This document shows positions 5,440-26,393 of a stretch of 30,368 bases of DNA, piece by piece (position 1 is the stretch's first letter; each line of letters begins with the position of its first letter). Made by a program: the position numbers and the translations under genes. The notes under the pieces were generated by a model. The model was not told the origin of the DNA. It was given only the letters and a program-made list of their open reading frames with translations, and searched no databases. This DNA is from an uncultured Candidatus Saccharibacteria bacterium (lineage in GTDB: Bacteria; Patescibacteriota; Minisyncoccia; Minisyncoccales; Staskawiczbacteraceae). The stretch is from assembly GCA_964555955.1 (NCBI GenBank), contig CAZKUM010000002.1, forward strand, positions 1-30,368, read 5' to 3'.

Positions 5440-6260
5440 AGCAATATTTGGACGTTTTAAAAAAAATAATGGATGAAGGCGTAGACAGGCCAGATAGAAC
5501 AGGAGTTGGCTCGCGCGCTGTTTTTGGCGTGCCAATGAGGTTTAATATGAAAGACGGATTTCCAGCAATGACAACAAAAAAATTGGCCTTCGAAGCTGTA
5601 AAAGCTGAGTTATTATGGTTTTTATCAGGAAGTTCAGACAACAAAGAACTTCAAAAATTAGGTTGCCATATTTGGGATGGAAACGCTGAGGCCGATTATT
5701 GGAAACCAAAAGCAAAATTTGAAGGGGATTTAGGCAGGGTTTACGGAGTTCAATGGAGAAATTGGAAGTCGCCTTATACAGATGTTCCTATTGATCAGAT
5801 AAGCAATGTTATAAATCAGTTAAAGAAAAACCCAGGAGACAGAAGAATGATAGTTTCAGCATGGAATCCTGCAGAGTTGGATATGATGGCTCTTCCGCCA
5901 TGCCATTTGCTTTTTCATTTTTTTTCTGTGCAGGGAAAGTTATCTTTATTAATGTATCAAAGAAGTTGTGATACATTTTTAGGGGTTCCTTTTAATATTG
6001 CTTCTTATTCTTTATTGCTGCATATGGTTTCGCAAGTTGTGGGGTTAGAGCCGCACGAGTTTGTGCATATTTTAGGCGACACCCATATTTATTTAAACCA
6101 TTTTGAACAAGTAAAAGAACAAATGGCCCGCGAGCCTTATTCTTTGCCAAAATTATGGTTAAATCCGGAAGTAAAAAATATTTTTAGTTTTAAAATGGAA
6201 GATATAAAATTAGTTGATTATAAATATCATCCGCCCATTAAAGCTCCAATGGCCGTTTAA
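5436..6260 (+). CDS. thyA: Thymidylate synthase
   Basis: DRTGVG, ELLWF, DLGRVYGVQWR, catalytic LPPCH, YQRSCD, LGVPFNIASY, GDTHIY and IKAPMAV. Confidence 0.98.
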   Translation: MKQYLDVLKKIMDEGVDRPDRTGVGSRAVFGVPMRFNMKDGFPAMTTKKLAFEAVKAELLWFLSGSSDNKELQKLGCHIWDGNAEADYWKPKAKFEGDLGRVYGVQWRNWKSPYTDVPIDQISNVINQLKKNPGDRRMIVSAWNPAELDMMALPPCHLLFHFFSVQGKLSLLMYQRSCDTFLGVPFNIASYSLLLHMVSQVVGLEPHEFVHILGDTHIYLNHFEQVKEQMAREPYSLPKLWLNPEVKNIFSFKMEDIKLVDYKYHPPIKAPMAV

Positions 6261-15678: not shown

Positions 15679-15707
15679 TTGACACGATTAATTTTATATG
15701 ATATTAT
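15679..15707 (+). promoter_or_regulatory. Promoter of the 66-aa orphan, divergent from thrS
   Basis: TTGACA (15679-15684), 17 bp spacer, TG-A-TATTAT (-10 at 15702-15707). Confidence 0.75.
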
Positions 15708-15754
15708 TAATATAATAAGGTAAAGTGATTTTTCACAATTTTTGGAGAAAAACC

Positions 15755-15955
15755 ATGACTAAGGCTAAAGCTAAGGTTTTCAGCCAAGAAGAGGTGATAG
15801 AAGTCAGAGGGCCTAATTTGGGAAAACTTGAACAACGACTTGACTCGTTGAATCCTCAAGACAGAGGCTTAGAGCTCAAAAGAGCAGGAGCAGATGGAGA
15901 CGATTTCGTTTTCAAGTTTACACAGGCCAACCAGCCTTCCAAACAGCCCCAGTAG
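15755..15955 (+). CDS. Hypothetical protein, 66 aa
   Basis: GGAG SD before ATG 15755, its own promoter and terminator. Confidence 0.65.
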   Translation: MTKAKAKVFSQEEVIEVRGPNLGKLEQRLDSLNPQDRGLELKRAGADGDDFVFKFTQANQPSKQPQ

Positions 15956-15978
15956 GTCCCGTTAACTCGGGGGCACAT

Positions 15979-16017
15979 GCGCCAAGGTTTGTTTTACAGA
16001 CCGCGGCGCCTTTTTTT
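15979..16017 (+). terminator. Intrinsic terminator
   Basis: GCGCC-AA-GGTTTGT-TTT-ACAGACC-GC-GGCGC followed by T7. Confidence 0.75.
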
Positions 16018-16057
16018 ATTTCTTAATCTTACCATCTTTATTTTTATCAAGAAAGTC

Positions 16058-16086
16058 TTGACAAAAGTATATTATAGGTGTATCAT
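16058..16086 (+). promoter_or_regulatory. Promoter of the 107-aa membrane-anchored orphan
   Basis: TTGACA (16058-16063), 17 bp spacer, TATCAT (16081-16086). Confidence 0.75.
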
Positions 16087-16164
16087 TAAATATAGCACAC
16101 AATAGGTTTTTTTCTGCCAAGCTTGTGCAAAAGCAGACAAAGGCCAAACCATAGGAGGTCTATT

Positions 16165-16488
16165 ATGGACAGTCTTACTAAGTATGTAATTGTCGTTACT
16201 ACCTTTTTATGCGTCGTTTGTGTTGTGGCGCTTGTTGTGTTAGACAGCAAGCGCACAGATCAACCCCTGCATCAGGAATCAGCTAAGGTGGAAAGCGACC
16301 AGGGGTATCAAGATGAGGCTGACAAGATTGTTAGCCAGATTAGGTACATTAAGGATGAGCGAACCGAAATATGTTTTGCCTATATCTTGGATGAACAGGG
16401 GAAGATTCAGTTTTTCACCTGTGTGCCAAGCAATATGGTTCAACCAACGTTGCTCAAGATTGGCAAGACTGAGGGAAAACAGCCCTAA
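16165..16488 (+). CDS. Membrane-anchored hypothetical protein, 107 aa
   Basis: AGGAGG SD before ATG 16165; N-terminal TM helix; C-terminal IRYIKDERTEICFAY...FTCVP module. Confidence 0.75.
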   Translation: MDSLTKYVIVVTTFLCVVCVVALVVLDSKRTDQPLHQESAKVESDQGYQDEADKIVSQIRYIKDERTEICFAYILDEQGKIQFFTCVPSNMVQPTLLKIGKTEGKQP

Positions 16489-16518
16489 ACGATAAAGGTC
16501 TAAGCAGGCCAACTGCTT

Positions 16519-16546
16519 ACCGCGTTGAGAAATACGCGGTTTTTTT
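16519..16546 (+). terminator. Intrinsic terminator, preceded by a second hairpin at 16502-16518
   Basis: ACCGCGT-TGAGAAAT-ACGCGGT followed by a T-tract; AAGCAG-GCCAA-CTGCTT lies upstream. Confidence 0.8.
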
Positions 16547-16559
16547 ATGTTTTGTGCTG

Positions 16560-16582
16560 AAAATTGACGGTCGTCAATAAAT
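16560..16582. repeat. Palindromic direct repeat, copy 1, upstream of the PaaX/Cas2-like gene
   Basis: AAAATTGACGGTCGTCAATAAAT, with core palindrome ATTGACG-GT-CGTCAAT. Confidence 0.92.
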
Positions 16583-16610
16583 TGACACTAAAGAATTAAG
16601 AGGCTATTAT
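16582..16610 (+). promoter_or_regulatory. Promoter of the PaaX/Cas2-like gene
   Basis: TTGACA (16582-16587), 17 bp spacer, TATTAT (16605-16610); abuts repeat copy 1. Confidence 0.75.
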
Positions 16611-16625
16611 AAATATAAAAATAAA

Positions 16626-17177
16626 ATGTCTGATTTAAAAGAAAAAATATTATTATCGCTTTTGGCTGGAATTGCATTTGGATGTGCAGTTACTCCTAGC
16701 CAGCAGAACAGAGTTTTAAAATCGTTTGCCAAAATTTGGGGTACTAATAATAAAGAAATTTCAAAGGAATTAAGGACTCTGAAGCGAAATCAATTAATTA
16801 AAAAGATTATCCGAAAAGACGAATCTACATATAATTTAGAATTGACCGAAAAAGGTAAACTAAAAGCATTAGATTATTATTTTTTCAGAAAATTAAAAAT
16901 TAAAGATAAAAAATGGGACGGCAAATGGCGTATGCTGATTTTTGATGTGCCAGAGCGTTTACGCAACGGAAGAAATGCCTTGAGATGGAAAATTAAGAAA
17001 TTGGGGTTTTATGAATTGCAAAAAAGTGTTTTTATAATTCCTTATGAATGCAAAAAAGAAATAGATTTTGTTGTTCATTATTTCAATTTAAAACAGTATG
17101 TTTATTATGGTATTTTTGAGATAGGGGACGAAAGAACAAATAAAAAATTAATGAAAACATTCCAAATCACAGATTAA
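16626..17177 (+). CDS. PaaX-like protein: winged-helix-like region plus a Cas2/VapD-like domain, with no CRISPR context
   Basis: LRTLKRNQLI...LELTEKG (wing), WDGKWRMLIFDVPE, RNALRWKIKKLGFYELQKSVF. Confidence 0.85.
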   Translation: MSDLKEKILLSLLAGIAFGCAVTPSQQNRVLKSFAKIWGTNNKEISKELRTLKRNQLIKKIIRKDESTYNLELTEKGKLKALDYYFFRKLKIKDKKWDGKWRMLIFDVPERLRNGRNALRWKIKKLGFYELQKSVFIIPYECKKEIDFVVHYFNLKQYVYYGIFEIGDERTNKKLMKTFQITD

Positions 17178-17191
17178 AGTGTAGGTGTACA

Positions 17192-17214
17192 AAAATTGAC
17201 GGTCGTCAATAAAT
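17192..17214. repeat. Palindromic direct repeat, copy 2, downstream of the PaaX/Cas2-like gene
   Basis: Identical 23-mer AAAATTGACGGTCGTCAATAAAT. Confidence 0.92.
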
Positions 17215-17246
17215 AGACTTCAAGGGTATTAGAGATTTATTAATAG

Positions 17247-20200
17247 CTATGATTCCCGCGGAACAAGAATTTCTTGCGCGTCGTCGGCTACAATTTTAAT
17301 TTCGCCATTTCGGTCGTCAACGCGGCCGGCAACAAAAATTATTTTATTTTCTTGCAAAGCAACAGGATTTCTTTCTAAAAGATTTGGGAAAATTACAACT
17401 TCTGTTTTGCCGGTTAAATCTTCAAGTTTCATAAACAGCATTGGCTTGCCGTTTTTAGTGATAATTTTTTTAACAGAAGAAACTAACCCGCCAACAATAA
17501 TTTTTTTATTTACAAAACTTGCGTCAATTCTTGAAATTGGCGTTGTTTTATTTTCAAAAAGTTTTTTAAAGCCGTACAAAGGGTGCGAGCTAACGTAAAG
17601 CCCAAGCAGTTCTTTTTCCCAGCCCAGTTTTTCAAAGTTGCTGGCAGGCGTGGCCGGTTCTAATTTTATTTCACTATTGATTTTTACTCCAGCTGACGCA
17701 AAAAGCCCCATTTGGTTTGAATTATTGTTTTTGTTGTTTTCTCTTGCAATTTCAAGCATTTTTTCTAAGTTTGTCAGTAATTGGTTTCTTTCGGCAAACT
17801 CGTCAAAAGCTCCGGCTTTTATTAAAGCCTCCATTGATTTTTTGTTTAAATCTTTAGATTTTACTCTGTGTATAAAATCGCTAATAGATGCAAATTTTCC
17901 GTTTGCTTTTTTTTCTTCAACAACTGCGTCTATAATATTTACCCCAACATTTTTGATGGCTAATAAACCAAACCTAATTTGATTTTTGCCCTCAACAACT
18001 GTAAAGTTTTTTAAAGATTCATTTATGTTTGGAGGCAAAACTTCAACATTCATTTTTTTGCACTCGTCAATTAAAAAGGCAATTCTTTCAACATCTGTTC
18101 TTTCTGAAGTTAAAACTGAAGCCATAAATTCAACAGGGTAGTGAGCTTTTAAGTAGGCTGTTTGGTAGGCAATTGTGGCATAAGCTGCAGAGTGCGATTT
18201 GTTAAATCCGTAAGCTGCAAAAGGTAAAATCCATTGCCATAATTCTTCGCCAACTTTTTTTGAAGCGCCATTTTTTACAGCTCCTTCAATAAATTTTGTT
18301 TCTTGAGCGTCTAAAAGATTTTTAATTTTTTTACCAACAGCTTTTCTTAAAACATCAGCTTCGCCCAAAGTAAACCCGCAAACTTCCTGGGCAATTTTCA
18401 TAAGCTGTTCTTGATAAATGCAAATGCCCTGTGTTTCTTTTAATATGGACTCTAATTTTGGATGCAAGTATTCTATTTTTTGACCTCCATGCTTTCTTGA
18501 AATATAATCTGGAATAAATTGCATAGGGCCCGGGCGATATAAAGCTACCATAGCGGTAATATCTTCAAAAGTTGTAGGATGAAGTTCTTTTAAATATCTT
18601 TTCATGCCATCGCTTTCTAGCTGAAAAACAGAAGTTGTTATGGCATCTTGCAAAAGTTTAAAAGTTTTTGCGTCGTCATAAGGAATTTTATCTAAATCAA
18701 TTTTTAAATTATTATGCAAAACATAAATGCGAGCCAAGGTGTCTTCTATTATGGTAAGGTTTTTTAACCCTAAAAAGTCCATTTTTAAAAGGCCTAAGTC
18801 TTCAATGCTGTGCATTTCGTATTGAGTTATAATGCCTTCTTCAGACTGGGTTGACCTTTGCAATGGGACAGAGTTGGTTAAAGAGTCGGCCGAAATCACA
18901 ATTCCGCAGGCGTGAGTTGAAGCATGGCGGGCAACTCCTTCAAGTTTTTTGCCTAAATCAATTAAGCGTTTTGCCTGGTCATCCATTTTATACATATCTT
19001 TAAACTCTGAAACTTTTTCTAATGTTTCTGCCAAATCCATGCCAGTTGGAATCATTTTTGCCAGCGAGTCGCAATAAGAATAAGTGTACTGCAAAGCCCT
19101 GCCAACGTCGCGAATAACAGCGCGGGCCGCCATTGTTCCAAAAGTAATAATTTGGGCTACATGGTCTTGGCCGTATTTTTCTGCAACATATTTTATAACC
19201 TCGTCTCTTCTTCTGTCGGCAAAATCTAAATCAATATCAGGCATAGAAATTCTTTCAGGGTTTAAAAATCTTTCAAAAAGCAAATTATGTTTTAAAGGGT
19301 CAACATTAGTGATATTGGTTAAATAGGCAACTAATGAGCCGCCGGCAGAACCTCTGCCGGGCCCCACAATTATTCTGTTTTCTTTTGCCCAGTTTACAAA
19401 GTCTTGCACAATTAAAAAATATCCTGCAAAGCCGGTTTTTTTAATTACGGAAAGTTCATAATTCATTCTTTCAATAATTAGATTTCGGTCAATATTTTCG
19501 CCCGCCTGCAACGCCTTCGGCTCGACCGTCTCGCTACGAGAAGCGTTACGGGCGGGCGTAGCCGATGCGGGCAGGCCAAATCTTGTTTTAAGCCCTTGCC
19601 AGCAAAGTTCTTCTAAAAATTGTTCTGCTGTTTTTTCTTCTGGCAACGAGAAAGTAGGCAATTTTGTTTTACCAAGCTCAATTTGCAAATTACACAGATC
19701 GGCTATTTTTTGCGTGTTTTCAATTGCCTCTGGGGTGTCTTTAAAATGTTCATGCATCGCTTCAGGGCTTATCATTGAAAAATTATCTTGAGCCATAGAC
19801 AGCCTTTCTGGGTCGTTTGCGTCAGCTCCCGTGTTTATTAACATTAAAACATCTTGGGCTTCTGCGTCTTCTTTTCTTAAATAATGTATGTCGTTTGTGG
19901 CAACTAAAGGTATGCCGGTTTTTTTAGAAAGTTCTATAAGCCTTTTGTTTGCGGTTGCTTGTTCTGGTATATTGGCATGGTGCTGTAATTCTAAATAAAA
20001 GTTTCCTTTGCCAAAAAAGGATTCATATTTTTTTGCGGTTTCTTCAGCTTCTTCGTTTTTGTTAGACAAAAGAAGCCGTGGAATTTTTCCCTGAATGCAG
20101 GCGGATAACCCAATTAAGCCCTCGGCATATTGGCTTAAAAGTTCTTCATCTATTCTGGGCTTGTAATAAAAACCTTCTAAATGCGCTTTAGAAACAAGCT

Positions 20201-20561: not shown

Positions 20562-20622
20562 ATTTTACTTTTTATGTTCTGCGCGGTCAACTATTGACAA
20601 TATATTATTTAGGGTGTATAAT
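20562..20622. promoter_or_regulatory. Back-to-back divergent promoters for dnaE (minus) and the small peptide (plus)
   Basis: Minus strand: TTGACC (20590-20585), 17 bp, TAAAAT. Plus strand: TTGACA (20594-20599), 17 bp, TATAAT (20617-20622). Confidence 0.8.
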
Positions 20623-20669
20623 TAAAATATAGGGAATCAAAACCTTAAATCCTGTTTTGGAGATGAAAG

Positions 20670-20795
20670 ATGACGGTTAAGGAATCGAAAGAAGTTAGGG
20701 GATCAAAGTGGGTTTTAGCTATGTTTATAGCTGCTTTTGCGGCTGTAATCTTGGGTATTGCCCATGCGGCGATTTGCCAGATGTTGGGAAAGTAG
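20670..20795 (+). CDS. Small hydrophobic peptide, 41 aa (below the ORF-track cutoff)
   Basis: MTVKESKEVRGSKWVLAMFIAAFAAVILGIAHAAICQMLGK; consensus promoter, GGAG 7 nt upstream, and a downstream terminator. Confidence 0.65.
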   Translation: MTVKESKEVRGSKWVLAMFIAAFAAVILGIAHAAICQMLGK

Positions 20796-20863
20796 GCAGG
20801 GACCCTCTCCTATAAGAGCGGTTCGCAAGATGGCCGGTTGAGCTTGTAGCTCCTGGCTGTCGG

Positions 20864-20901
20864 GGCCGTTGTGTGTCGCGCGACATGCAACGGCCTTTTT
20901 T
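20864..20901 (+). terminator. Long-stem intrinsic terminator
   Basis: GGCCGTTGTGTGTCG / CGACATGCAACGGCC (two G-U pairs) followed by T6. Confidence 0.85.
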
Positions 20902-23559: not shown

Positions 23560-23582
23560 AGCATCAGCTCCTTAAAATGTTT

Positions 23583-23622
23583 GCCTTGTTAAATACGCCA
23601 GAAAGCGGTATTTAACGAGGCA
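23583..23622 (-). promoter_or_regulatory. Long hairpin in the 5' leader of the 656-aa gene
   Basis: GCCTTGTTAAATAC...GTATTTAACGAGGC (14 bp plus 2 bp), ending about 10 nt before the SD. Confidence 0.65.
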
Positions 23623-23703
23623 GGGTTGTCAAAGTGCCACACTATATTAACTATATGACGGCCTATAGTTTTGTCAAGTTTTATGGGTTTTTTTAAAAAA
23701 AAG

Positions 23704-23712
23704 TTATCCACA
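23704..23712 (+). promoter_or_regulatory. Single consensus DnaA box
   Basis: TTATCCACA. Confidence 0.55.
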
Positions 23713-23781
23713 GGCGTAAAGAATTGACACACTTGTTTTAGAAAATATAAAAAGTTAAAATAATAAAATATATGCATAATC

Positions 23782-23834
23782 GTTAAATTATTAAACTGTT
23801 AAATTATTAAATAACGTTATTTAATAATTTAACA
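23782..23834. repeat. Perfect 38-bp palindrome (23797-23834) plus an extra direct copy of its 14-bp arm (23782-23795)
   Basis: TGTTAAATTATTAAATAACGTTATTTAATAATTTAACA. Confidence 0.88.
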
Positions 23835-23860
23835 ACAAAACAATTTAGCAATTTAATAAA

Positions 23861-24325
23861 ATGAATAAGTCATTAGCATTTTTATTAGTAATCGCAGGAG
23901 TAATTATTTTTGTTTTGGGCGGAGGCGCTGGCGTTTTTTATCAAACACAACAGAGCCAATTGGGAATTATAGGTGCTCCGCAAAATAGCGCGGCAGAAAC
24001 TGCGTTAAAATCATTGTCTTCAAAAGTTATTCCCTCAATTGTAGCTTTTGGCGAAGTGTCAAACATATCTGGAAAAAATATTACATTAAAAAATGCTGGG
24101 GAAAGTTTAACAATAAAAATTGATGACAATGCGCAAATTTCTTCTTTTAATGCAGCCCCGGCAAAAGGAACAACTGCTCCTACTCAAGCAAAAGCTGAAT
24201 TTAAAGATATTAAAATTGGCAATACCTTAAGTATAAATTTAAGGCTTTTATCTAGCGGCACTTTAAAGGGCATGTCGGTTGTTATTGTTAATTCTTTGCC
24301 AAACACAAACGTTGGTCCAAAATAA
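23861..24325 (+). CDS. Membrane-anchored protein with a small beta-rich (OB-fold/DUF5666-like) domain
   Basis: N-terminal TM with GGGAG; GEVSNISGKNITL...IKIGNTLSINL. Confidence 0.75.
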   Translation: MNKSLAFLLVIAGVIIFVLGGGAGVFYQTQQSQLGIIGAPQNSAAETALKSLSSKVIPSIVAFGEVSNISGKNITLKNAGESLTIKIDDNAQISSFNAAPAKGTTAPTQAKAEFKDIKIGNTLSINLRLLSSGTLKGMSVVIVNSLPNTNVGPK

Positions 24326-24338
24326 TATTATAGAATTT

Positions 24339-26393
24339 ATGGCAAAAATAAATTCGTTTTACTTGTTTTCTTTTGGATTAATTGCCTTATTAGCTGGTTT
24401 TGTATTATATTCGTCTATAGATCCGGCTGTGATTATAACTTCTGCGCAATCTTCAAGCTCTGGTTCAAGCTCCAGCTCAAGTTCCAGCTCAGGCTCTAGC
24501 TCAAGTTCAAGTAGTTCCAGTTCAAGTAGCTCTAGTTCAAGTAGCTCTAGTTCAAGCAGTAGTTCAAGTTCAAGTAGCGGAGGATCGTGCGACCCTAGTT
24601 GCCAAGTTGGAACAGTTAGTGATAGTTTTTGTAAAGATATTAATACCGTTGCTAATAGAGATACAATAACAACGTGCGACTTAGGTGTTTGTAATACTAG
24701 CGAATTGGTTCAATGGGCTCCTTGTCCGCCTCCAGAGTTGATAGAAAAATATTGTGGGCCCAATGGAACTATTAAAGAAAAGAAAAGAGTTTATTATTGC
24801 CGGCAAAATGGCAATCAAGCCGCTTGCGTGGCAGGAGTTCAATCTGGCACAACAGGCAACTGTGGCGCATGCGGTCCTACAGGAAACACACGATGCGGAG
24901 GCGGAGCTGGTCAATCGAGTATAATGATAGAAGTAAACTGTCCGTCTTGTCAGGGAGCTGGAATATGTTTTCCTAATCTTAGCTGGAAAAAACTTGCAGA
25001 TTGCCCCATTAAACAAGATATAACATTGCCTCCAATGTGCGTAAATAATGTTTTATGCAGCGTTGTAATAAGCTGGCCTGGCACTTGCACTGAGCTTTTC
25101 CCTGGCAGTACTGCCGCCTGTGATGGCGCAACAGTTGGTGTTGTTTGCACAGACCCTTGCAGCGGTGGCGGCGGAGGCGGTTCTAGTTCAAGTTCAAGCA
25201 GTTCTAGTTCAAGCAGTTCTAGCTCAAGTTCAAGTAGCAGTTCAAGCAGCTCAAGTTCAAGCTCCAGCGGAGGCGGCCCTTGTGTAGATGGCAGTCACTC
25301 TGAGTGCATAGGCAACCAATGCGTTTGTGTTAATGGCACTGGTATAAATCAATGTAATTATCCTGGCTCTTATTGTTCTGGGTCTAGCAGTTCAAGCAGT
25401 TCTAGCTCAAGTTCAAGTAGCTCTAGCTCCAGTAATGGGGGAGGCACTGGCTGTATATTAAATGGCAAAGGAGTGCCTGATGGCACTACTAAATCTTGTT
25501 TCTGTGGCGGCACTACTCCTTGCGTAAATGGCGTATGGGCTCCTTGTTCAGGTTCTCATTCTTCCTGTGATGGCGGCCAATGTAAATGTGTTTCTGGCGC
25601 AGGCGATGACCTTTGCGCAACAGACAGCGCTTGTGTGCCGGCAAACGGCTATCCATACGCAGATCATTTGCAAGCTTTCACTGGTAGTTATTGCACAGGA
25701 ATTCCAGGCGTTGGAACTGCCATATTTAGGTGGAATTATGAACATACTGCAAAAATGGGAGAGGTAAAATTTGAAATTCAGGTAGATGATAATCCTAACT
25801 TTTTATCGCCTGAAGTTGACAGGGTTTATGGCAATCTTAACTATCCGGCAGGGGCTTTAAATGAACAAATGATTTTTGTGCAATTAGATCCTTCGTCTCA
25901 TTATTGCGACACTAATAATTTGTCTAACCAATATCCTAATAACCAATGCGACCATATAAACTTTAACACAGCTTATTATTGGAGGGTAAAAGTGTGGGCA
26001 AAAGATTATACTGCTTCAGAATGGAAGCAGGCTTCACAAACATTTACATACGGATACACTCATCCTTGCCCTAACCCAAACTATAATTTTAATCCAACTA
26101 CTCCGCTTGTAAACAGTTCAACTTCTCTTGTAGACACTTCTGTTTGTTATACCTCCACCGGAACTTATTCTTGCAACACAGGGCCAAATACTTCATACAC
26201 TTGGGATTTTGGCGACGGTTCCGCTAAAAGTTATACTAAAGGAAATGTTTCTCATACATATACTTCAACCTGTTCTCATTACTCAAGCTTGAAAGTTTGC
26301 GACGAAATAGGCTGCGGTTATATTTCTAAAAATGCTTTTATCCTTCCTTGCTCAAGCACCTTGCCTGGCAACAAAGAAGTTCCGCCATTCTAA
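24339..26393 (+). CDS. Large surface protein: N-terminal TM, three poly-Ser tracts, Cys-rich modules, an Fn3/Ig-like region and a C-terminal PKD domain (start probably ATG 24339)
   Basis: Ser tracts at 24450-24578, 25182-25268 and 25383-25433; YYWRVKVW (Fn3-like); YTWDFGDGS...NVSHTY (PKD). Confidence 0.85.
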   Translation: MAKINSFYLFSFGLIALLAGFVLYSSIDPAVIITSAQSSSSGSSSSSSSSSGSSSSSSSSSSSSSSSSSSSSSSSSSSSSGGSCDPSCQVGTVSDSFCKDINTVANRDTITTCDLGVCNTSELVQWAPCPPPELIEKYCGPNGTIKEKKRVYYCRQNGNQAACVAGVQSGTTGNCGACGPTGNTRCGGGAGQSSIMIEVNCPSCQGAGICFPNLSWKKLADCPIKQDITLPPMCVNNVLCSVVISWPGTCTELFPGSTAACDGATVGVVCTDPCSGGGGGGSSSSSSSSSSSSSSSSSSSSSSSSSSSSSGGGPCVDGSHSECIGNQCVCVNGTGINQCNYPGSYCSGSSSSSSSSSSSSSSSSSNGGGTGCILNGKGVPDGTTKSCFCGGTTPCVNGVWAPCSGSHSSCDGGQCKCVSGAGDDLCATDSACVPANGYPYADHLQAFTGSYCTGIPGVGTAIFRWNYEHTAKMGEVKFEIQVDDNPNFLSPEVDRVYGNLNYPAGALNEQMIFVQLDPSSHYCDTNNLSNQYPNNQCDHINFNTAYYWRVKVWAKDYTASEWKQASQTFTYGYTHPCPNPNYNFNPTTPLVNSSTSLVDTSVCYTSTGTYSCNTGPNTSYTWDFGDGSAKSYTKGNVSHTYTSTCSHYSSLKVCDEIGCGYISKNAFILPCSSTLPGNKEVPPF

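Follow-up and report, generated by a model that had tools for sequence, protein, structure and literature searches.

PaaX is a repressor that responds to phenylacetyl-CoA and is found in E. coli and Pseudomonas (PDB 8a39, 3l09, 3kfw). In E. coli, the operator of PaaX, TGATTC-N27-GAATCA, consists of a long inverted repeat of about 39 bp, and PaaX sterically hinders RNA polymerase at its own Px promoter, which is thereby repressed (PMC9493321). Here we analyze a short PaaX-like gene, designated gene G, that is located in a stretch of 30,368 nt from an uncultured Candidatus Saccharibacteria bacterium (assembly GCA_964555955.1, contig CAZKUM010000002.1; the whole stretch is called the window below). 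Gene G is bracketed by two copies of a palindromic repeat, one in front of its promoter (copy U) and one after its stop codon (copy D). The comparison with related loci described below suggests that the locus is probably not a mobile element or a CRISPR relic but a self-regulating two-operator unit.

Like PaaX, G has an N-terminal winged helix followed by a Cas2-like middle domain (PF20803), and the palindromic unit of the G family, about 40 bp in length and located over the −35 element, is of the same scale as the PaaX operator. In contrast to PaaX, however, G comprises 183 aa instead of about 300 aa and is devoid of the C-terminal ligand-binding domain, a second identical site is present past the stop codon, genomes contain several orthogonal copies each, no paa genes are found in the 30-kb window, and the Asp that follows strand 1 in Cas2 is still present. 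Cas2 and VapD are ferredoxin-fold nucleases, and Cas2 is also the scaffold of the Cas1-Cas2 integrase. The G domain resembles them in having a ferredoxin fold, a conserved Asp where strand 1 ends, and a borderline score with the cas2 model, but it is fused to a winged helix and is not accompanied by cas1, an array, or an antitoxin-like partner gene. Type II toxin-antitoxin systems differ as well, in that the transcription unit of G is a single gene without a partner conserved across loci. The operator pairs lac O1/O2, gal OE/OI, and lambda OL/OR are systems in which an auxiliary operator acts via DNA looping. The G locus shares with them a promoter-proximal operator and a second cognate site hundreds of base pairs away, so that a loop could raise the occupancy; however, the second site of G follows the 3′ end of the gene that encodes the regulator itself, U and D are almost the same in sequence, and the loop, or a G tetramer, is putative. 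In IS200/IS605 elements and in REP/RAYT systems, hairpin-forming palindromes flank one small gene, with a size of roughly 600–700 bp. The single small gene between palindromes and the presence or absence of the G unit as a block, without an obvious target duplication, are reminiscent of these elements, but G is devoid of an HUH/Y1 transposase, the G units are single-copy, syntenic, and stable in their context, and no dispersed copies of the G palindrome were found in the window or in the locus DNA of the relatives.

The exact 23-mer AAAATTGACGGTCGTCAATAAAT is present at positions 16560–16582 and 17192–17214, both times on the plus strand, with a spacing of 632 bp, exactly as an earlier note on this DNA had reported. 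It can be extended to 27 nt with a single mismatch (T/A at position 24). A third copy is absent from the window, even when three mismatches are allowed, and dinucleotide-preserving shuffles yielded zero matches to the repeat pair. Both copies contain the core palindrome ATTGACG-GT-CGTCAAT (16563–16578 and 17195–17210). As also noted earlier, they enclose only a single open reading frame (ORF), that is, gene G, and a near-consensus promoter (Table 1). The terminator of the upstream 121-aa ORF stops 11 nt ahead of U, and U does not merely adjoin the −35 element of the G promoter but overlaps it, with five of the six −35 bases residing within the 27-nt repeat. D starts 14 nt past the G stop codon, and 28 nt separate its end from the stop codon of the convergent dnaE gene (17247–17249). 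In all these analyses, the DNA of the source genome that was covered is the window, and that of the relatives comprises 3–10 kb on either side of the gene.

Table 1. Coordinates of the features of the G locus in the window
Feature	Position	Strand	Description
Intrinsic terminator of the upstream 121-aa ORF	16519..16548	+	GC-rich hairpin followed by a T-run; left border of the unit
Upstream repeat copy U	16560..16586	+	27 nt; proposed autoregulatory operator; dyad about 34.5 nt upstream of the −10 element
Sigma-70-type promoter of G	16582..16610	+	−35 TTGACA at 16582–16587; 17-nt spacer; −10 TATTAT at 16605–16610
Gene G	16626..17177	+	183 aa, stop codon at 17175–17177; short PaaX-like protein
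Downstream repeat copy D	17192..17218	+	27 nt, core at 17195–17210; proposed second cognate site
Block of U, promoter, G, and D	16550..17246	.	Absent at the equivalent site of the close relative L207

The bracketing by palindromes is not confined to this locus. A word-indexed search retrieved 634 proteins of the G family, with at least 561 family loci in species-representative genomes, all labelled as Patescibacteria or Parcubacteria lineages; an exhaustive profile search yielded 2,845 clusters at 50% identity (E-value of 1e-10 or better). For 80 family loci that were fetched, the 250 nt upstream of the gene were compared with the 200 nt downstream, and 78 loci could be counted. The two flanks had a common exact repeat of at least 12 nt in 86% of the 78 loci versus 4% in the controls, which used either further stretches from the same locus or a downstream flank taken from another locus. 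The length of the shared repeat had a median of 17.5 nt and a maximum of 48 nt, versus a median of 9 nt for the controls. Thus, the possibility raised earlier that homologues are each flanked by their own palindromic repeat was borne out for most of them. The extended repeats, 20–53 nt long, are mainly in direct orientation and nearly identical within a locus, and they differ between loci; most of them are palindromic, with arms of up to 26 nt. The genomes contain several divergent family copies each, and paralogues within one genome have different palindromes. A third copy of the palindrome is rare within 3 kb on either side of the 80 loci, and none was found in two loci of 20 kb. Long palindromes in general are concentrated in the gene flanks, with 93 cases versus 42 in the other approximately 440 kb, and the distant ones do not have the family core. 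Taken together, the comparison of the flanks indicates that the bracket, with one palindrome before the promoter and one after the stop codon, is a trait of the family. No partner gene is kept across the homologous loci, in which the neighbors are housekeeping genes. In a metagenome scan with the degenerate palindrome pattern ATTGACGRYCGTCAAT, six of the 80 loci listed contained a relative of G and only two (L136 and L149) the pair of sites, but the pattern is too permissive, so that the scan is uninformative on further sites in the source genome. In the searchable literature, no paper was found that links PaaX, or proteins resembling Cas2, to Patescibacteria or to palindromes in the flanks, and a description of the present architecture was not found either.

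The fold of G had been described before as a winged helix combined with a Cas2-like domain, as in PaaX, and this assignment was corroborated. Pfam PaaX_M (PF20803, "PaaX central Cas2-like domain") matches residues 95–174 with 78.6 bits (cutoff 24; E-value 3.8e-22) and is the sole Pfam match over its curated cutoff; the Pfam PaaX N-terminal domain has no match in G at an E-value of 1 or less. The model of full-length PaaX, TIGR02277, scores 24.2 bits versus a cutoff of 264.55 and aligns at model positions 63–147 of 279 only, and the cas2 model TIGR01573 stays below its cutoff, with 23.5 versus 24.5 bits and a match restricted to residues 102–137. The AlphaFold model of G includes a winged helix at about residues 3–73 (three helices and a beta-hairpin), a linker helix at residues 75–88, and a Cas2-like ferredoxin domain at about residues 95–178 (nt 16908–17159), of which the model strands and helices span residues 101–178. 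The chain ends at residue 183, directly past this domain, and the C-terminal helical ligand-binding domain of PaaX is missing. A Foldseek search with the whole chain returned E. coli PaaX (8a39) as the best match (E-value 2e-5), followed by Cas2 structures and VapD, with 3exc, 8ia4, 4qr0 (Cas2), and 6zi1 among these structural matches; a PDB sequence search with the Cas2-like domain alone gave only spurious matches to ApcE and alpha-Rep. The acidic residue after strand 1 that had been pointed out earlier, D107, is invariant in 43 homologues, and the same is true for E110, R116, R120, E130, Q132, and S134. A His-hydrophobic-His (HUH) motif is absent from the conserved columns of the family. According to the structural model, G is a short two-domain PaaX-like protein that consists of a winged helix and a Cas2-like domain and has no C-terminal ligand-binding domain.

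The sites of the family share a common anatomy. In a logo of the sites aligned at the dyad, a C is found at position 3 from the dyad in 92% of the cases, and an A/T tract occupies positions 8–11. The palindrome center is CGATCG in 44 of 101 cases; other centers are CTAT(A/C)G, CTCGAG, CGGTCG, CACGTG, and CATATG. U and D match symmetrically on both sides of the dyad, with an identity that exceeds 0.8 up to 15 bp, amounts to 0.63 at 16–20 bp, and is at the background level further out. The conserved unit is, therefore, about 40 bp long. The repeat co-varies with the winged helix, a relationship that the earlier note had proposed to test: the similarity of the half-sites correlates with the identity of the N-terminal domain with rho 0.40, versus rho 0.29 for the C-terminal domain, and motifs of the recognition helix sort with the cores of the palindromes. 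NLYRSKLI pairs with the core CGATCG, YLYRL.F with GCTAT(A/C)GC, and DLKRQKLI together with an "EILW" N-terminus with GGCTCGAGCC, whereas NLKR(S/T/N)xL pairs with TTGACG(A/G)TCGTCAA, the type of this window. These correlations are confounded by common ancestry, yet they are as would be predicted for a cognate protein-site pair. In orthologues with the same gene order, the palindromes differ and both copies are altered together. For example, a homologue with 77% identity (L081) has ATTGACG-AC-CGTCAAT at both ends, versus -GT- in the window.

Additional features were observed at single loci. Locus L004 (2932–3650) contains three palindromes, the third of which, at +83, matches the upstream copy; in the palindrome located 21 nt past the stop codon, the outer arms are fully compensated relative to the upstream copy (GTGGGCGAAAATC against GCGGTCAAAAATC). 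The upstream palindrome of L012 (2910–2955) is hybrid-like, the left half being similar to the site of the paralogue L018 of the same genome (3554) and the right half to the downstream site of L012, which could hint at cross-talk or heterodimers. In related genomes, intergenic DNA repeatedly harbors the sequence AGTTATCCACAGG, in which a perfect DnaA box is included (L010:3572, L012:3593, L032:1340, and others). Exact DnaA boxes occur 13 times in 462 kb, versus about 3.5 times expected, and in three loci this sequence is located only a few nucleotides past the downstream palindrome. A role of these boxes as companions of D was rejected, because the motif is general to intergenic DNA and is not tied to the palindromes.

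The two copies differ in their relation to promoters. Hexamers resembling a −10 element occur at a distance of 31–38 nt from the dyad in 22 cases on the sense strand of U, versus 7, 6, and 1 cases in the three remaining copy-strand combinations. At the U copy of the window, with the dyad about 34.5 nt from the −10 element and thus near −46, the repeat therefore covers the −35 element. Judged from this placement, the geometry of U is that of an autoregulatory operator. For D, in contrast, no −10 element was found at a fixed distance on either strand in the family loci, and a promoter reading out of D on either strand was rejected for this reason. D is present in 75% of the loci, no matter whether the next gene is co-directional or convergent. 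Because its presence is independent of the direction of the downstream gene, D belongs to G and not to the neighbor. It is located 0–60 nt past the stop codon, at times overlapping it, and the spacing between U and D has a median of 644 bp (interquartile range 618–675 bp). The RNA hairpin formed by D of the window has only 6 bp (about −4.6 kcal/mol) and is weak, a T-run on the sense strand is missing, and D has its T-tract on the wrong side in many relatives. Since the hairpin is weak and lacks a sense-strand T-run, D is not a canonical terminator. A function of D as terminator of the convergent dnaE was likewise rejected, because of the weak hairpin and because L207 has no D at all.

Slightly on the likely side of the balance, in our assessment, G is a PaaX-like autoregulator with two cognate sites, U as the operator and D as an auxiliary operator acting via a loop or as a roadblock. 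By analogy with PaaX, G would be a DNA-binding protein, probably a dimer, of which the winged helix would read the palindrome and the Cas2-like domain would hold the dimer together. U would be its own operator, with the predicted transcription start about 46 bp downstream of the dyad, and the protein bound there would cover the −35 element and thereby exert feedback on its own transcription. We infer that this feedback is most likely repression, as in the case of PaaX at the Px promoter. D would be a second cognate site without a promoter of its own. Most likely, it would either cooperate with U via a DNA loop of about 630 bp, tightening the autoregulation, or mark the 3′ edge of the unit as a protein roadblock. 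Among the models that the earlier note had offered, operators at both ends is thus the one that is best supported; the promoter geometry of U stands behind it, and nothing of this kind was found for D.

Several observations weigh against this reading. The spacing between U and D exhibits no helical phasing, which is uninformative at about 600–640 bp. The perfect palindrome in the window is only 16 bp long, and the left arm is degenerate in both U and D. Double changes between U and D that keep the complementarity were observed 34 times, versus about 8 times expected if the changes were independent, and in the palindrome pairs of L004 and L041 the outer arms are different, yet each palindrome is perfectly symmetric. 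Such symmetric changes may stem from symmetric protein contacts, from selection for hairpins or cruciforms, or from template-switch mutation in quasi-palindromes, and selection for hairpins or cruciforms or template switching fits better than base-specific reading of the outer arms. In addition, it is not evident what use the cell would have for a protein that binds solely beside its own gene, what D does is one of the points that we infer, and an oligomer beyond the dimer would be hypothetical.

As to the history of the locus, some observations speak for a stable gene that is inherited vertically, and others for turnover among the closest relatives. Orthologues with 72–77% identity keep the order thrS(−), small ORF(+), G(+), dnaE(−), and rnhB(+), the shallow clades of the protein tree have one common context each, and one identical protein was seen on 23 contigs that stem from different samples, without any change of context. 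In L207, the DnaE of which is 91% identical, G is missing at this site, and a family member with 48% identity and a different palindrome pair is found in the gap between dnaE and rnhB. In L208, L209, L210, L211, and the P0127 contig (DnaE 86–87% identical), no family member is present beside dnaE. The site between thrS and dnaE is occupied by the WIN type in some genomes and by the EILW type, which has the N-terminal EILW motif and belongs to another deep clade, in L050 and L065. Between L207 and the window, the nucleotide identity is 84–90% up to position 16549 and again from position 17260, so that the block of about 700 bp that contains U, the promoter, G, and D is a clean indel; its left edge is the end of homology at 16549, and its right edge is placed only between D and the last dnaE codons. 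The empty site of L207 contains neither repeat copy. No palindrome was found at the reciprocal empty site, between dnaE and rnhB of the window, where the intergenic DNA is too diverged from that of L207 to be aligned and the indel junction is unplaced. Thus, the empty sites with a single repeat that the earlier note had envisaged were not encountered: a single-repeat scar is missing at both empty sites that were read, and recombination between the repeats was, therefore, not seen. Because both palindromes vanish together with G in a close relative, the neighboring genes do not need them. As far as these alignments tell, the unit is gained or lost as a whole among close relatives.

The gap between the co-directional dnaE and thrS genes (window 15686–17246) is a variable hot spot, which in the window contains a 76-aa ORF, the 121-aa ORF, and G. 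Its counterpart in L207 (9220–9781) contains only the 121-aa ORF, that in L208 (4615–4629) is reduced to 15 bp without any gene, and that in L209 (6684–8926) harbors three small ORFs and an MNT/HEPN toxin-antitoxin pair. Since this gap also gains and loses unrelated small genes, an ordinary flux of accessory genes is sufficient to account for the patchiness.

This turnover bears on the idea that the unit could be a cassette of minimal size that is mobile or can be excised, with the palindromes as its ends and the winged-helix Cas2-like protein as a nuclease or recombination factor acting on them. Block-wise presence or absence among close relatives (L207, L208–L211, and the P0127 contig), the occupation of the same intergenic site by members of different deep clades, the mainly direct repeats, the invariant residues D107 and E110, and the several divergent copies per genome all speak for a cassette. 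However, the empty sites on the thrS side of L207 and on the rnhB side of the window have no single repeat, and the constant context of one identical protein on 23 contigs and the gene order kept by orthologues down to 72% identity speak against it as well. Furthermore, no near-identical paralogues were seen, a third palindrome copy is rare nearby, the window contains no recombinase or transposase and the family no HUH motif, relatives of G were not found in collections of phages, plasmids, and viral contigs, and the patchiness is explained by the ordinary gene flux mentioned above. We therefore regard such a cassette as unlikely. The corresponding proposal of the earlier note, an excisable or copy-out cassette, is mostly contradicted by these data, although the block-wise gain and loss among close relatives speaks for it. 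A related view, to which we attach similarly little credence, is that these units are selfish or accessory cassettes of Patescibacteria in which the winged helix tethers the protein to its own palindromes and the acidic site makes it a putative active nuclease. Such a nuclease might move, excise, or home the cassette at the palindromes, or it might be a fused effector of the toxin or defence type. The acidic site of the Cas2 type is intact, the distribution is patchy, and the orthogonal copies are multiple, all of which keeps the view alive. If it were true, the units would form an undescribed class of minimal elements related to the ancestry of Cas2.

It is also rather improbable that the palindromes are structures that function independently of the protein, either as RNA hairpins that terminate or stabilize transcripts or as DNA cruciforms that insulate the gene. 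The long and often perfect palindromes, with arms of up to 26 nt, the frequent compensated changes, and the arrangement of A-tract, hairpin, and T-tract in some of them, which resembles bidirectional terminators, fit such a function. In D, moreover, G·T exceeds A·C among the sense-strand mismatches (17:5, p = 0.017), which is not the case in U (8:7). This bias is consistent with a transcribed D and could be due to RNA pairing, but C-to-T mutation of the non-template strand in transcribed DNA could generate it as well. The hairpin of the window is weak and has no sense T-run, and in many members the T-tract is wrong-sided. U is probably untranscribed, because it is located upstream of the G promoter and right after a strong terminator, and yet it is identical to D. 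A structural function leaves the common sequence of U and D and the tracking of the core with the winged helix unexplained, and both copies are lost together with G. A one-off local duplication or a functionless chance repeat, for which the presence of just two copies in the window could be adduced, is refuted by the family-wide comparison of the flanks: none of the shuffles matched, and the same architecture recurs with different sequences in the large majority of the loci, so that its probability is practically nil. A similarly negligible probability applies to the proposal that the locus is a degenerate CRISPR-like mini-array with two repeats, in which the gene is the spacer, or a relic of an adaptation module. 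The repeats are palindromic and the Cas2-like domain closely approaches the cutoff of TIGR01573, but PaaX_M is by far the better-scoring model for this domain, the window is devoid of cas1, of an array, and of a leader, the gene itself takes the place of the "spacer" in all cases, and U is positioned on the promoter. The mini-array model of the earlier note was thus left without support. Altogether, an autoregulator with two cognate sites is the reading that we favor.

The annotated neighbors in the window are all housekeeping genes (gyrB, nusG, L11, dCMP deaminase, tmk, thyA, folA, gatB, miaA, miaB, thrS, dnaE, rnhB, glycosyltransferases, and nusB), and, in agreement with the earlier note, neither cas1 nor a recombinase or transposase is found among the annotated genes. 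The window does not contain a CRISPR array either; Tandem Repeats Finder detected only Ser-rich coding repeats, which have periods of 6–30 nt and are located at 24453–25433 within a gene for a 704-aa PKD-domain protein (24279–26393). An Rfam search of the window region returned zero matches. Between dnaE and rnhB, a small stand-alone unit is found at 20594–20895, which consists of a promoter-like TTGACA...TATAAT, a hydrophobic ORF of 41 aa (20671–20796), and a GC-rich terminator (20864–20895, followed by a T-run); the counterpart of this ORF in L207 comprises 55 aa and is located at the equivalent place (5685–5852). The region 23560–23860 is AT-rich and intergenic and contains an imperfect inverted repeat of 38 nt (23778–23853) and an exact DnaA box, TTATCCACA (23704), and two near-DnaA-boxes are located slightly upstream of this region (23316 and 23337). 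An origin-like or a regulatory function of the region is conceivable.

The genomes of Patescibacteria are very small, and knowledge of gene regulation in these bacteria is scarce. For most of the sampled members of the G family, the two flanks of the gene directly show the likely DNA target. The family would thus offer a natural set of orthogonal protein-operator pairs, in which the co-variation of recognition helix and site is visible, and a recurrent layout of two sites, one at the promoter and one at the 3′ end. In addition, the occurrence of a Cas2-like domain with an intact acidic site outside of CRISPR systems bears on the relationship between Cas2, VapD, and the middle domain of PaaX.

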